From positions 192,001 through 256,000 of the forward strand of contig JAYQLI010000035.1 of NCBI GenBank assembly GCA_038143065.1: DNA of 64,000 nt, given 5' to 3'. Made by a program: the position numbers and the translations under genes. The notes under the pieces are model-generated. The model saw only the letters and a list, made by a program, of their open reading frames with translations. It ran no database searches and was not told the DNA's origin. Shown piece after piece: positions 17,976-23,720 of this stretch. Each line of letters begins with the position of its first letter. Within the stretch, counting starts at the first letter, position 1. This DNA comes from Rhodospirillales bacterium (lineage in GTDB: Bacteria > Pseudomonadota > Alphaproteobacteria > Bin95).

Positions 17976-18083
17976 TTTACCTTCCCTCCACAAAACCAGT
18001 TTGGACCGTCCTCATAAAACAGGTCAAATTCTTCTAAATTATCACTAGTCTGTCGTAGGATTCGTATTTTGGAGAAACTTTCC

Positions 18084-19067
18084 ATGTCGTCTTTGGGGCA
18101 AGCTGCTCAAACCTTTGCCAAAACATTAGACCGAAATGGTGGTGGTCAGGATGTTAGTTTAGGAGCAATTCCGACTAAGGGTTTTCTCTGGTGTCATATT
18201 AAGTGGGATGACGAGAGCGGTGTAGCTTGGCTCAGAAATCAATCTGGACTCCATTCAGATATTGTTGAAGCGTTATTAGCTCCAGATACAAGGCCTAGAT
18301 GTACCGTGCATAAAACGGAGTATGGCAATGGAGTATTCATCAACCTTCGCGGTGTAAACTTAAACGATGGTGCTGATCCAGAAGATATGATTTCTATCCG
18401 GATATGGGTGGAAGGAATCCGAGTAATAAGCGTCTGGAAAAGACGACTTCGTGCGGTTGCTGATATTGTTGAAGGTATTGAGCGTGGCCAAGGCCCGTTG
18501 AGCCCGGATGATTTGATTGCAAAGTTGGCGCTTCGATTGGCAGATCGAGCTGAGCCAATAGTAGCAACGCTAAATGAAACCGTTGATAGAATGGAAGAAG
18601 ATATTTTATCAAACATTCCAGGACGTGAATTCCGGGCAGAATTAGCTGATTTGAGGCGTACAGCGATTGTTCTTCGCCGCTTTATGTTTCCTCAAAGAGA
18701 TGCATTATCAACTTTAGCCATAGAAGATCTCGAATGGCTCTCAGAGAGAGGCCGCACGAGATTGCTAGAAGCTACTGACCGTATTACCAGGCTTTCTGAA
18801 GAGCTTGATGCTATCCGCGATCGTGCAGGTGTTGTTCAAGATCAAGTAGTGGAAGCGCGCGGCGAAGCCATGAACCGTAGCATGCTAATTCTATCGGTTG
18901 TGGCGGCAATTTTCTTGCCGCTTGGTCTATTAACGGGTTTGCTTGGCATCAATGTGGGAGGGATCCCAGGCGAAAATACTTCTTGGGCTTTTTGGGCCGT
19001 GTGTATGTTACTGGCGATCACAACTGCGTTTCAGCTTTGGCTCTACAGAAAGCTGCGGTTGATTTAA
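18084..19067 (+). CDS. zntB: Zinc transporter ZntB (CorA family)
   Basis: TRPR, LRGVNLN, DMISIRIW, FLPL...GLLGINVGGIPG. Confidence 0.88.
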   Translation: MSSLGQAAQTFAKTLDRNGGGQDVSLGAIPTKGFLWCHIKWDDESGVAWLRNQSGLHSDIVEALLAPDTRPRCTVHKTEYGNGVFINLRGVNLNDGADPEDMISIRIWVEGIRVISVWKRRLRAVADIVEGIERGQGPLSPDDLIAKLALRLADRAEPIVATLNETVDRMEEDILSNIPGREFRAELADLRRTAIVLRRFMFPQRDALSTLAIEDLEWLSERGRTRLLEATDRITRLSEELDAIRDRAGVVQDQVVEARGEAMNRSMLILSVVAAIFLPLGLLTGLLGINVGGIPGENTSWAFWAVCMLLAITTAFQLWLYRKLRLI

Positions 19068-19094
19068 AAAGCTTGGTAATTTTCGCGTGTAAAA

Positions 19095-20732
19095 TTAATG
19101 CAAAGCCTCGGCCCAAGCTTTTAGGCTAGCAAGATGACTGGATATGCTAGGGTCAACGATTGGAACGGCGCCAAGATAAATTTGCCCGTCACCCCCGTCG
19201 ATTGTTATCGACTCTCCAGCCATAATTTTGTGCGGCCCCGCAATAAGTAATTTCTTTTCAAAATCTATGGAAACGTCAACAGCTCCTGTCACGCAGGGGC
19301 GCCCTAATCCCCTGGCAATAATGGCGGCATGAGATGTAACACCGCCTCTGGTTGTTAATACACCGCGCGCTGCGTGTATCCCTCGGATATCTTCGGTGCT
19401 TGTTTCCTTCCGCACAAGAATCACGCTTTCTCCGGTTTCGGCAAGCGCTACTGCCTCCTCTGTGTCAAAAGATATACATCCGGTAACAGCACCAGGAGAT
19501 GCTGGAAGCCCGCTAGCGATTTGAGCTCGTTCTGCTTCGGGATCGATAATGGGGTGTAGAAGCGAAGTTAGAGCATTTGGGTTAGCGCGAATAACTGCCT
19601 CTTGTGTCGTTATCAGGCCTTCATTTGCCATATCAACGGCTATCCGAATTTTAGCCTCTGGCGACCGTTCACCCGATCTTGTCTGCAGGACCCATAGCCG
19701 GCCTTGCTCAATAGTAAACTCAATATCCTGCATGTCTCTGAAATGATTTTCTATACATGCTTGGATTTTAGAAAGTTCCTGAAATGCCTCAGGAAAGGTC
19801 TCTTCCATACTTGCTAGATGTGAATTTCTTTTGAGACGATCTTTGGCAGTTAAAGCTCTGGGGGTTTTAATACCAGCTACGATATCTTCACCTTGAGCTT
19901 GGATTAGAAACTCTCCATGAAGAGCCTTTTCGCCAGTTAACGGATTCCGCGTAAACATTACCCCTGATGCTGAGGTGTTATCTCTATTTCCGAAAACCAT
20001 TGCTTGAATGGACACGGCTGTTCCAAGCTTTTCTGAAATGGCGTGCAGCTGGCGATATGAGATGGCAGGAGGATTTTCCCAACTTTTAAAAATTGCCGCT
20101 ATAGCATCCAAAAGCTGGGTCTCAGGATCTTCAGGAAAAGGAAAATTTAACCTCTCTTCTACCAAGTCTTTGAAAGCGGATATAATCAAGACCAAGTCTT
20201 TAGAGGTTAGTTCCTGGTTCAGTAAAAGATTGTGATCCTTCTTGTAGCAATCGATAATTTCTTCAAAGCAGTTAGCTTCCATACCAAATACGACACAGCT
20301 GTACGTTTGAATGAAGCGTCGGTAGCTATCCCAAGCAAATTTCTCAGATCCAGTTGCAGCTGCAAGGCCTTGTGTGGTTTTAGTGTTGAGGCCCAAATTA
20401 AGGATGGTGCTCATCACTCCAGGCATAGAGGCTTTGGCCCCTGATCTTACTGATAGTAATAGTGGGTTTACTGCACTACCAAAATTCTGCTGAGTTTCCT
20501 TTTCAATTTGTTTTAGTGCACTTTTAATCGAATTTTGCAGAGTTCTTAAGCATTCATGGCCATTTCTGAAGAAGTCCTGGCAAACTTCTGCCGAAATTGT
20601 GAAACCGGGAGGCACGGGGACACCAAGCTTGGTCATTTCAGCAAGAATTGCACCTTTGCTACCAAGAAATTCTTTCGTCTCAAGGCCACCATCGGCCCTG
20701 CCGTTGCCGAAGCTAAATATTAATTGGCTCAT
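19095..20732 (-). CDS. ppdK: Pyruvate,phosphate dikinase-like protein, truncated (ATP-grasp plus phospho-His domains only, 545 aa)
   Basis: LGSKG, VPPGFT, SVRSGA, QGEDIVAG, DIEFT..LQTR, GGVTSHAA; ends AWAEALH* at the start of the PEP-binding barrel. Confidence 0.85.
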   Translation of the reverse strand: MSQLIFSFGNGRADGGLETKEFLGSKGAILAEMTKLGVPVPPGFTISAEVCQDFFRNGHECLRTLQNSIKSALKQIEKETQQNFGSAVNPLLLSVRSGAKASMPGVMSTILNLGLNTKTTQGLAAATGSEKFAWDSYRRFIQTYSCVVFGMEANCFEEIIDCYKKDHNLLLNQELTSKDLVLIISAFKDLVEERLNFPFPEDPETQLLDAIAAIFKSWENPPAISYRQLHAISEKLGTAVSIQAMVFGNRDNTSASGVMFTRNPLTGEKALHGEFLIQAQGEDIVAGIKTPRALTAKDRLKRNSHLASMEETFPEAFQELSKIQACIENHFRDMQDIEFTIEQGRLWVLQTRSGERSPEAKIRIAVDMANEGLITTQEAVIRANPNALTSLLHPIIDPEAERAQIASGLPASPGAVTGCISFDTEEAVALAETGESVILVRKETSTEDIRGIHAARGVLTTRGGVTSHAAIIARGLGRPCVTGAVDVSIDFEKKLLIAGPHKIMAGESITIDGGDGQIYLGAVPIVDPSISSHLASLKAWAEALH

Positions 20733-20736
20733 AGGT

Positions 20737-22835
20737 TTAGCCTTGGATTTTTCCAAAATCCGCAACTAAACTCATTGTATTAACAATGTTTGATAAGAGA
20801 TTTAGTCGATTAGAACGGGTTGTAGGGTCCTCAGAATTCACAGTTACTTTTTCAAAAAACGCATCGACTGGATTTCTTAGTCTTGCAAGCTCTCCCATAG
20901 TTTCTTGGAAATGCCCTCGATCGAGATGTTCTTCGACGCGGGGCTTTGTCGAAAGTAATATATCGAAAAGCTTGGTCTCTTCATCTTGCGTAAATAAAGA
21001 CGGGTCTACTGTTCCGTCATAATTTACGTTCTCCTTTTTAGCTTCGATAGACGAAATGTTTGCTGCTCGAGTGAAAGCAATTAGTAAATTTTCACCGTCT
21101 TCACTCGCGAGGAATTGACCTAGGGCAGCAGTTCTTTCAACTAGCCGAACAATGTCATCTTCCTCACCAATGGCAAATACTGCAGCTATATGATCGTACT
21201 TGATACCTTCAGCACGGAGATGATTATTAAGTCGATCTATCAAAAACTGTAAAAGCGACTCTGCTGTTTCATCAGCAGACATGCACTCTGCAGGAAGCTT
21301 TACGTAGGCTTGATAAGCATTACGAATTACGTTTCGAAGAGGTAGATGAATCCGATTAACGATTACCAATCGGATGACGCCAAGCGCGGCGCGCCTTAGA
21401 GCATAAGGGTCTCGACTTCCTGTTGGCTTTTCATCAATTGCGAAGAACCCAACAAGGGTATCAATTTTATCAGCAAGAGCGACAGCTACGGATACTGGAG
21501 TTGTAGGACAGAGGTCGCTGGGGCCCTGCGGGGCATAATGATCCCTTATGGCATCGGCAACTTGAGAATTTATTCCCTCTTCATTTGCATAATATCGTCC
21601 CATTACGCCTTGAAGTTCTGGAAATTCTCCGACCATGCCAGAAATTAAATCAGATTTTGAAAGCATGGCGGCTTGATCAACTAGTTCTAAGTCTGCGCTT
21701 TGAATAGCTGGTGCTAATAACTGGCTTAGGACACGTATCCGTTTCACACGATCTGCAAGAGTGCCGAGTTTTGCGTGAAATATTACTTTATCAAGCCCAT
21801 CTAATCGGCTTTTCAGCGTGGCTTTGCGGTCTTGGTCCCAGAAAAAACGCGCATCTGCTAGCCGTGCGCGTAACACTCTCTCATTCCCTGCAATAATTTG
21901 TTTACCACCATCGTTACTCTCGATATTGGCTACTACTGCAAATTTTGGAGCAAGGTTTCCGTCTGCAGTTTCAAGAGCAAAGTACTTTTGGTGAGATCTC
22001 ATTGAAGTGGTGAGTACTTCTGCGGGAACCGACATAAATTCTTCGTCAATAGAGCCTGACAATACTACAGGCCATTCAACGAGACCATTAACTTCGGCGA
22101 GTAGTCCTGGGTCTGATTTGACTTTTAGGCCATGTGTTTTTGCGACTGTATTCAACCCTTGCTCGATTTTTAATTTTCTAGCCGCAGGATCTAAGATTAC
22201 GTGGGATTGCAAAAGATTTTGCTCATATGAAATGAAGTCTGAGAGCGGAATTATGTTGTCCTCATCCATAAACCGATGGCCGCGGGTGAATGACACAAAA
22301 GGCTTTAAGCCCATGGATCCGCCAAAATTGACAGAACCATCAAGCAAAGCACCGTCAAACACTGCAGCAACCTGCTCTAAGGGCCGAACGTACCGACGTT
22401 CGCTATCGCCCCAACGCATTGACTTTGGCCATGGGATAGCATGGATAGCTTCTGCAATGAGTTGCGGAAGAACACTCTGCGCTGGTAGGCCTTCAATAGT
22501 GCGTACCACGAAATAAAAGTCGGAGCCTTTGACTTCCCGGATTTCACATTCCTCAACCGAGGATAAATTGTTTGCATTAAGGAAGCCCTCTAGTGCTTTT
22601 TCCGGTGCGCCTACGCGTGGACCTTTTCGGACATCCTCTCGGGTTGGTTGCGCGAGTGGTATGCCTTCCAGTACAACAGAGATCCGTCTAGGTGTTGTGA
22701 AAAAGCGAATTGAATGAGCCGCTAGGGCAGCCTCTGACAGCTTTTCTGACAAAATGCGTGAAAAGTCTTCTCCAGCCCGAGTTTGCATCCGGGCAGGATT
22801 TCCTCTGATAGAATTTCGATTAAAAGCTCTGCCAT
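20737..22835 (-). CDS. glyS: Glycine-tRNA ligase beta subunit; frameshift near 22795
   Basis: MAELLIEILSEEI (ATG 22835) then PARMQ, TPRR, WPKSMRWG, EFPELQG, DPYALRRAA. Confidence 0.96.
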
Positions 22836-22838
22836 GGT

Positions 22839-23720
22839 TCAGACTCCCATCTTTTCGTCAAGATGACCGCGGGATTTCAACCAGACCGTTGCAGATGTCC
22901 GCGCCAGAGCCCTAACACGAGCAATATAAGCAGCTCTTTCGGTAACACTTATTACCCCACGGGCGTCTAAGAGATTAAACGTGTGACTGGCTTGAATGCA
23001 TTGATCGTAGGCGGGTAGGGCTAGTCCGGCATGTGCTAATTTTTGACATTCATTTTCGGCGTCGGTGAAGTGACGAAACAAAGTTTCCGTATCAGCATGT
23101 TCAAAATTGTAGGCGGAGAATTCTCGTTCGGCTTGGTGGAAGACATCCCCATACGTCATCCCTGCGCCATTAAAATCAAGATTGTACACATTATCGACGC
23201 CCTGAACGTACATAGCCAGTCGTTCTAAGCCATATGTGATTTCGCCTGATACTGGAGAGCAGTCATAACCACCTACCTGCTGGAAGTAGGTAAATTGAGT
23301 TACCTCCATTCCATCACACCAGACCTCCCATCCAAGTCCCCAAGCTCCAAGGGTAGGGCTTTCCCAATCATCTTCTACAAGACGGATATCATGAGCACGA
23401 GTATCAATTCCAATCGCTTCGAGAGACTCAAAATACTTATCTAAAATATCTGAAGGGTTTGGCTTAAGTATTACCTGATATTGATAATAGTGCTGAAGCC
23501 TGTTTGGGTTTTCACCATATCTACCATCCGTTGGTCTTCTTGATGGCTGAACATATGCAGCTTGCCATGGCTCAGGCCCCAGGGCACGAAGTGTTGTTGC
23601 TGGATGGAATGTTCCAGCACCAACACTCATGTCATAAGGCTGCAAGACTGCGCAGCCTTGTTTCGACCAAAAATTAGAAAGGCGTAAGATTAATTCTTGG
23701 AATGATATAGGCGCTGACAT
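22839..23720 (-). CDS. glyQ: Glycine-tRNA ligase alpha subunit
   Basis: [34 protein letters not shown]. Confidence 0.98.

Follow-up and report, generated by a model that had tools for sequence, protein, structure and literature searches.

A truncated pyruvate, phosphate dikinase maintained by selection in estuarine and marine alphaproteobacteria as a candidate stand-alone phospho-histidine protein

What does a pyruvate, phosphate dikinase (PPDK) do without the domain for pyruvate and phosphoenolpyruvate (PEP)? The question is raised by a gene in a 64,000-nucleotide stretch of a Rhodospirillales genome (assembly GCA_038143065.1, contig JAYQLI010000035.1, positions 192,001 to 256,000), hereafter the window. 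A short ppdK gene following glyQ and glyS encodes the nucleotide-binding ATP-grasp domain and the swivelling phospho-histidine domain, and the end of the protein coincides with the start of the PEP/pyruvate triosephosphate isomerase (TIM) barrel of full-length PPDK. The original prediction, made from the nucleotide sequence, had proposed either a split PPDK or a stand-alone ATP-linked phospho-histidine donor. The analysis presented here favours the latter. By analogy with a mycobacterial protein described below, the truncated PPDK has probably (about 0.6) been retained as an ATP-charged phospho-histidine protein that would act on another protein or sense ATP.

The frame of the short gene is uninterrupted and its product ends with ...AWAEALH. 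The open reading frame (ORF) was called from a TTG codon (19095..20765, minus strand, 556 residues). The ATG at 20732, which yields 545 residues, aligns with the start of full-length orthologues and is the conserved start. In the 545-residue protein, Pfam recognized PPDK_N (PF01326, 2.8e-50) and PEP-utilizers (PF00391, 2e-20) alone, and PEP-utilizers_C (PF02896) was not found. Residues 14–543 align to residues 10–530 of the 874 of a Clostridium symbiosum-type PPDK. The alignment to the PPDK equivalog model (TIGR01828, EC 2.7.9.1) ends at profile position 525 of 865, with a score of 691 bits against a cut-off of 843.45. Full-length relatives continue for about 345 residues further, from ...VRANAETP, and in a comparison with 17 of them the short form stops 2–3 residues before this first barrel strand. 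The ORF and the Pfam matches confirm what had been read from the DNA at the outset, an intact 545-residue frame with the ATP-grasp and phospho-histidine domains only, ending 27 bp from a convergent zntB gene.

In an error-prone assembly such an end might be an assembly or indel artefact, and a 1-bp homopolymer indel does split ptsP in this one. For the short ppdK this explanation is refuted, as the original prediction had maintained. Only the 27 bp remain before the next gene, and the same end recurs elsewhere. In a search of 40 related genomes, the short frame was also found in G008 (94% identical) and G005 (59% identical), which are other species of the same genus and represent two of the nine other genomes of that genus searched (the present genome is termed G000). 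The order glyS, short ppdK, convergent zntB is common to both, and the stop position matches to within 2–3 residues. In a collection of 5.8 billion proteins, the best 14 clusters, which come from four sources, have 527–554 residues and all lack PF02896; twelve are 91–94% identical to the query and two 58–59%. PF02896 is present in every one of the next 106 clusters listed. Homologs ending at the same boundary, which the original prediction had named as a check, were thus found in two genomes and 14 clusters.

The downstream junction is also spanned, without gaps or joints, by DNA contigs from two runs of two studies. Record 1 of run X1 covers 18000–20515 with 2 differing letters, and record 25 of run X4 covers 18000–19625 with 38. 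Both records are assembled contigs rather than raw reads, and the source sample may be X1 itself; of 22 runs listed, four were compared, labelled as estuary, marine and seawater metagenomes. The split ptsP (encoding EI-Ntr; G000:C35:2752017-2755883) shows a 1-bp difference in a C run near 820–830 of the locus, leaving a 210-residue GAF ORF and a 546-residue ORF where G008 has a single 762-residue frame. A homopolymer assembly error is the probable cause; the end of the short ppdK is of a different nature.

Wider searches yielded no further short form, either among the 150 listed of 340 matches at class level (304 of 401 genomes matched) or among the 150 listed of 170 at phylum level (168 of 401 genomes matched). 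A search with residues 1–300 that was limited by length gave, among the 120 matches listed, just fragments of full-length PPDKs. Each tally takes in one unpublished genome (G263 and G778, respectively) with a full-length match. Two candidates, G123 and G183, were rejected since their frames are cut by contig ends; for six phylum frames of 702–786 residues the contig ends were not checked. A literature search for other truncated PPDKs gave nothing relevant.

The short gene is the alphaproteobacterial ppdK itself, native to the genome and still in its ancestral place after glyQ and glyS; its barrel was removed by one old event in the ancestor of a low-GC estuarine and marine sub-clade. In a 23-row tree of the shared region, the short forms make up one clade (Shimodaira-Hasegawa-like approximate likelihood ratio test, SH-aLRT, 100), which is sister to six full-length PPDKs of the same genus (SH-aLRT 98). 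The short protein of G000 is 54–57% identical to full-length PPDKs of the genus. The tight succession of glyS and ppdK is also present in full-length relatives. The downstream gene differs: in four full-length genomes of the genus (G001, G002, G006 and G007) it has an FAD-binding-type N-terminus and is not zntB, indicating that the truncation came with a rearrangement. The guanine-plus-cytosine (GC) content of the glyS-ppdK locus is 45–47% in the three short-form genomes, against 56–66% in other members of the genus. Two of the three genomes are also much smaller (2.6–2.8 Mb versus about 4 Mb), and G000 measures 4.6 Mb with 5.5% contamination.

The truncated gene evolved rapidly. The path lengths from the shared node are about 0.99 and 0.73 for the two short lineages and about 0.20–0.24 for the full-length proteins, a difference of 3–5-fold. 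According to identity tables with G010 as outgroup, the ratio of the G000 to the G007 branch is about 2.4 for PPDK. As the same ratio is only about 1.26 for GlyS, the fast change in PPDK exceeds what a mere shift in GC content would bring.

These long branches, the loss of the canonical function, the disappearance of the PPDK regulatory protein (PDRP) and the change of several near-invariant residues are what a decaying relic would display, that is, a gene killed by its truncation whose remnant persists in the glyQS operon with stops not yet acquired. The pattern of substitution contradicts it. Between G000 and G008, the one species pair with usable synonymous divergence (dS), the ratio of nonsynonymous to synonymous substitution rates (dN/dS) of the short ppdK is 0.133 (NG86) or 0.170 (YN00). 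There are 35 nonsynonymous and 71 synonymous differences (binomial P = 2e-21 versus neutrality). By part, dN/dS amounts to 0.14 in the ATP-grasp domain, 0.05 in the His domain and 0 in the terminal 25 residues (521–545), where not one amino acid differs. For the same pair, the neighbouring genes have values of 0.142 (glyS) and 0.096 (zntB). After a burst of fast change, purifying selection on the short ppdK is again as strong as on glyS. Moreover, both frames are open in G000 and G005, between which synonymous sites are saturated and 41% of the amino acids diverge; the frame is also open in 14 of the 14 best database clusters, and all catalytic residues are invariant. The relic explanation is already largely refuted and very improbable. 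The recent pseudogene that the original prediction had envisaged holds in one respect, as relatives do carry a full-length ppdK, and fails in the other, as this copy does not evolve neutrally (dN/dS 0.13).

What has been conserved in the protein? Eight residues do not vary among 120 aligned sequences: K26, R96, D336, E338, Q350, R352, T466 and H468. Their C. symbiosum counterparts by alignment are K22, R92, D321, E323, Q335, R337, T453 and H455, which we take to be residues of the ATP/Mg site, the regulatory Thr and the catalytic His. The Protein Data Bank (PDB) lists mutant entries K22A, R337A and T453A in C. symbiosum numbering. Among 206 columns conserved to at least 98% in 105 full-length alphaproteobacterial PPDKs, the G000-type lineage (group A) keeps 172 and the G005-type lineage (group B) 183. 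The catalytic motifs quoted in the original prediction are indeed kept, and the drift from GGKG and PGMMDT that it had pointed out proved real in this comparison. Certain positions have changed in both short lineages: K355E, T357S and D389T/N at the start and end of linker 1, M452I in the helix before the His loop, and F534, D542 and R545 in the terminal helix. These may be former contacts that were lost with the barrel.

The AlphaFold2 model of the short protein (mean predicted local distance difference test score, pLDDT, 91.1; predicted template modelling score, pTM, 0.78) matches PPDK structures over all 545 residues, and its best matches in the PDB are PPDKs. The root-mean-square deviation is 4–6 Å to 5JVL, 1VBG and 2R82 versus about 14 Å to 1KBL and 1DIK. 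From this no conclusion on the state of the central domain follows, as full-length sequences dominated the input alignment. Since the catalytic residues are invariant and a PPDK fold is predicted, the first half-reaction would still be feasible. C. symbiosum PPDK constructs without the C-terminal domain reportedly remain competent for the ATP/Pi partial reaction. The stand-alone ATP-linked phospho-histidine protein of the original prediction fits the invariant residues, the constraint on the gene and on its His domain, and the confidently predicted fold.

The split PPDK that the original prediction had offered as an alternative is not supported. A stand-alone PEP-utilizers_C gene was not found in G000, G005 or G008, in which PtsP alone carries this domain. 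In G000 (97.6% complete), PtsP/EI-Ntr is the sole real PEP-utilizers_C protein; a weak match on contig C9 was rejected, as it is an HpcH/HpaI aldolase. There is one PPDK_N gene in G000, and neither ppsA nor a second ppdK was found in this genome. The phospho-histidine domain might still dock onto a barrel encoded elsewhere and thereby bring back PPDK-like chemistry or allow ATP to feed the nitrogen phosphotransferase system (PTS). The sole candidate is then PtsP, since none of the three short-form genomes has another PEP-utilizers_C protein and the PtsP barrel shares one Pfam family with the lost one. Such complementation in trans is quite unlikely: no stand-alone PPDK-type barrel was found in the three genomes, PtsP has a His domain of its own, ptsP and the short ppdK are unlinked (about 2.5 Mb apart on contig C35), and there was no sign of PDRP, on which the regulation of a working PPDK would depend. 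The three short-form genomes, which are 97.6, 90 and 96% complete, yielded no PDRP (PF03618, Kinase-PPPase), and all seven other genomes of the genus contain it. Loss of the barrel implies that pyruvate and PEP can no longer be interconverted. The presence of PckA in the five genomes checked means that PEP can still be obtained from oxaloacetate for gluconeogenesis.

A precedent for a protein of this kind exists, and the function is to that extent not the undescribed one that the original prediction had supposed. According to a recent study, VadK (Rv1127c) of Mycobacterium tuberculosis, described as a histidine (di)kinase, is a PPDK without the pyruvate/PEP domain, which is encoded nowhere else in that genome (Pascoe et al., EMBO Rep 2026; PMC13400623; bioRxiv version 10.1101/2025.10.30.685616). 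VadK autophosphorylates on His422 with ATP and Mg and co-purifies with methylcitrate synthase and dehydratase. Its authors propose that it tunes the flux through the methylcitrate cycle, possibly with ATP sensing (PMC13400623). The taxa named in the sections consulted are mycobacteria, Nocardia, Streptomyces, Rhodococcus and Burkholderia ambifaria, with no alphaproteobacterium among them (PMC13400623).

The course of events was as follows. In a single deletion or rearrangement the gene lost the whole TIM barrel, with the cut falling precisely where the second linker helix ends, and acquired the ZntB-like gene as the neighbour of its new stop. The two-domain remainder then changed fast before returning to purifying selection. 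In the present-day protein, the ATP-grasp domain would run the first PPDK partial reaction, the transfer of a phosphoryl group from ATP to His468. By analogy with VadK, the phospho-protein could serve as a regulator of another protein, as a phosphoryl donor to it, or as a sensor of ATP levels. A partner may also be dispensable: the protein could be an enzyme converting ATP and Pi to AMP and PPi through a hydrolysable phospho-histidine, or a reporter of ATP/AMP. The conservation of both the ATP-grasp and His domains would suit this, as would the lack of any partner gene seen nearby, and an ATP-sensing role is also considered by the authors of the VadK paper (PMC13400623). It is nonetheless unlikely, as a futile ATP hydrolase would be costly and the strong constraint on the His domain and the terminal helix (dN/dS of 0.05 and 0) suggests a docking surface.

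Several observations weigh against an ATP-charged phospho-histidine protein with a partner or sensing role. Selection on the short form, gauged from a single species pair, is looser than on full-length ppdK, for which dN/dS of the same region is 0.02–0.04 in four sister-species pairs (two more pairs, with dS near or above 1.6, give 0.022 and 0.074). With glyS at 0.04–0.07 in sister species, the ratio of ppdK to glyS dN/dS is about 0.9 for the short form versus about 0.5–0.7 for the full-length one; relative to glyS, the loosening is under two-fold. The motifs GSKGAIL and PGVMST depart from columns conserved to at least 98% (G25S, M106V and D108S/G); these changes to GGKG and PGMMDT are confined to the G000-type lineage, and N29I is found in this genome alone. 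The G005-type lineage retains GGKG and PGMMDT, but its R462, H393 and E447 are changed. With such changes in loops and residues of each lineage, the chemistry of the phosphate site may have been altered or weakened. Both the autophosphorylation and the partner are proposed by analogy with VadK, and the gene context, glyS and a transporter, points to no partner. In favour of the gene being used there is a weak hint of expression: RNA-library contigs of two studies span most of the short ppdK and its 3' junction, with some parts uncovered, although transcription cannot be proved from contigs.

The features of the locus are collected in Table 1. As the glyS stop lies only 4 nt before the ATG of the short ppdK, both genes probably belong to one operon. 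The product of the convergent gene resembles ZntB, with 238.9 bits to NF007092, below the cut-off of 292. Neither a terminator nor a promoter was detected in the scan of the junction. Within glyS, at 20970–20975 of the window, RNA-library contigs of two runs differ by a +1 and a -1 indel separated by 5 bases, which is either a strain variant or an error in this short stretch.

Table 1. Coordinates of the short ppdK gene, the parts of its product and the adjacent features in the window.
Feature	Position	Strand	Remarks
Short ppdK gene	19095..20732	-	545 codons and stop; stop 19095-19097, ATG 20730-20732
ATP-grasp (nucleotide-binding) domain, residues 1-355	19668..20732	-	K26, R96, D336, E338, Q350, R352 invariant
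Linker 1, residues 356-400	19533..19667	-	T357S, D389T/N common to both short lineages; K355E adjoins
Phospho-histidine (swivelling, PEP-utilizers) domain, residues 401-520	19173..19532	-	T466-S-H468; His468 codon 19329-19331
Terminal stretch, residues 521-545	19098..19172	-	linker-2 helix (532-544 in model)
ZntB-like CorA-family transporter gene	18069..19067	+	convergent to short ppdK
Spacer between convergent stops, 27 bp	19068..19094	.	deletion or rearrangement junction
glyS	20737..22788	-	NCBIfam-confirmed; upstream of short ppdK
glyQ	22839..23720	-	NCBIfam-confirmed; upstream of glyS

As VadK is tied to the methylcitrate cycle, the genes of this cycle deserve mention. A PrpB equivalog scores over the cut-off in the five genomes checked (about 385 bits, cut-off 354) beside a gene of the PrpD/MmgE family, which in all five remains far under the cut-off of the PrpD equivalog. 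The two loci are not adjacent in G000, where prpB and the short ppdK are separated by about 2.16 Mb of the contig. A methylcitrate-cycle link for the short PPDK is neither supported nor excluded. The PrpB/PrpD loci are G000:C35:2369091-2370454 and matching loci in G001, G005, G007 and G008. The open frame of the PrpD-family gene measures only 288 residues in G000, perhaps because of another indel; it measures 512–517 in G001, G005 and G008 and 752 in G007. At G000:C35:893899-894656, a gene of the PrpB/PEP-mutase family is in two adjoining pieces, of which one contains an in-frame TGA; either the gene is broken or the assembly has another error here.

Truncated PPDKs matter beyond this locus. 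They are annotated throughout as 'pyruvate, phosphate dikinase', with the consequence that metabolic models wrongly assign their hosts a pyruvate-to-PEP step. VadK, the only case studied, belongs to a pathogen and has been considered as a virulence factor and drug target. A separate origin of the two-domain protein in marine bacteria that are not pathogens would demonstrate that it has a general use in the cell. Here this origin is accompanied by sister species that retain the whole enzyme, by the loss of PDRP and by clear purifying selection, and it offers a safe and tractable setting in which to look for that use: the acceptor, the nucleotide products and what the conserved Thr does. More tentatively, and with the odds somewhat against it, truncation of PPDK to a stand-alone phospho-histidine protein might be a recurrent route and not peculiar to mycobacteria, by which marine alphaproteobacteria made a VadK-like regulator of their own, dropped PDRP and connected the protein to a different partner. 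Candidates would be the nitrogen PTS, by way of the homologous barrel of PtsP, and an enzyme of central metabolism. In that case the clade, in which full-length sister species stand beside two short lineages that are 41% apart, would provide a before-and-after series for the passage from an enzyme to a signalling kinase.

How does the short protein compare with known systems? It shares 44–45% identity over the first two domains, and the catalytic residues, with canonical PPDK (1KBL/1DIK; Flaveria 5JVL). Canonical PPDK has the barrel of about 345 residues, whereas the short form has none, stands in a genome without detected PDRP and has evolved several-fold faster. Rifampin phosphotransferase, PEP synthase and PigC/RedH share both modules and have a dedicated acceptor domain, either in the same protein or in a partner; no acceptor gene was seen near the short ppdK. 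Phenylphosphate synthase likewise reuses both modules. The folds of rifampin phosphotransferase and PEP synthase are distant matches, and the scores to NF041857 (45 versus 999 bits) and TIGR01418 (101 versus 740 bits) are far below the cut-offs.

NF004531 (PRK05878, 534 positions) is matched over its cut-off (479.1 versus 456 bits). This was rejected as proof of membership in a VadK family, as 168 of the 401 genomes of the phylum search pass as well. Among the 150 listed matches there are 143 in open frames of at least 866 residues, with scores of 499–537 bits, and 6 in frames of 702–786 residues. As full-length PPDKs also pass the cut-off, this model, although built on the short form, defines no short-form family and gives proteins of both sizes the same name.

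Two-domain and divergent PPDKs also occur on plasmids. A Mycobacterium branderi plasmid and pROB02 of Rhodococcus opacus B4 carry two-domain 'PPDK' genes in varied contexts. One actinobacterial copy lies inside a cluster with P450, ferredoxin, FAD-reductase and aldehyde-dehydrogenase genes, and another lies beside MarR and a 543-residue protein whose sole Pfam match is the C-terminal PEP-utilizers domain. This variety suggests several different uses of the module. Plasmids of Methylibium petroleiphilum PM1 and Paraburkholderia encode a divergent 'pyruvate, phosphate dikinase' of 844–848 residues, 37–39% identical to the query; the Methylibium gene stands among bacterial-microcompartment shell genes (EutM, EutN, BMC). 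In the ESM Atlas, after exclusion of clusters with PF02896, 25 of the 30 nearest have PPDK_N and PEP-utilizers only (506–531 residues), which serves as a lead; the commonest named taxa are Actinomycetota and Methanobacteriota.

The relation to the actinobacterial short forms, with which the short PPDK is 35–41% identical, was examined in a second 23-row tree, made of 13 of the 20 genome-derived rows, P0014 and nine plasmid-borne proteins (G002, G003, G009, G012, G016, G024 and G035 were left out for size). Three plasmid-borne actinobacterial proteins with PPDK_N and PEP-utilizers only, from M. branderi (522 residues), R. opacus B4 (570) and Streptomyces atratus (548), stood in for Rv1127c, which is not in the tree. 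The alphaproteobacterial short forms nest within alphaproteobacterial PPDKs, several branches having a support of at least 95. The three actinobacterial proteins lie elsewhere on very long branches, their exact placement being unsure. Judged from these sequences, the alphaproteobacterial truncation is independent of VadK and is a VadK-like architecture, not VadK by descent. A two-domain truncated PPDK kinase was already known with VadK; the value of the present case lies in its independent origin, in the clean comparison with full-length sister species and in its harmless host. Like VadK, the short PPDK has the ATP-binding and catalytic-His domains, retains the catalytic His and the ATP-site Arg, has no pyruvate/PEP domain in the protein or the genome, and is under selection. 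Unlike vadK, which lies beside prpDC in a pathogen, its gene lies at the glyQS locus of estuarine and marine bacteria.

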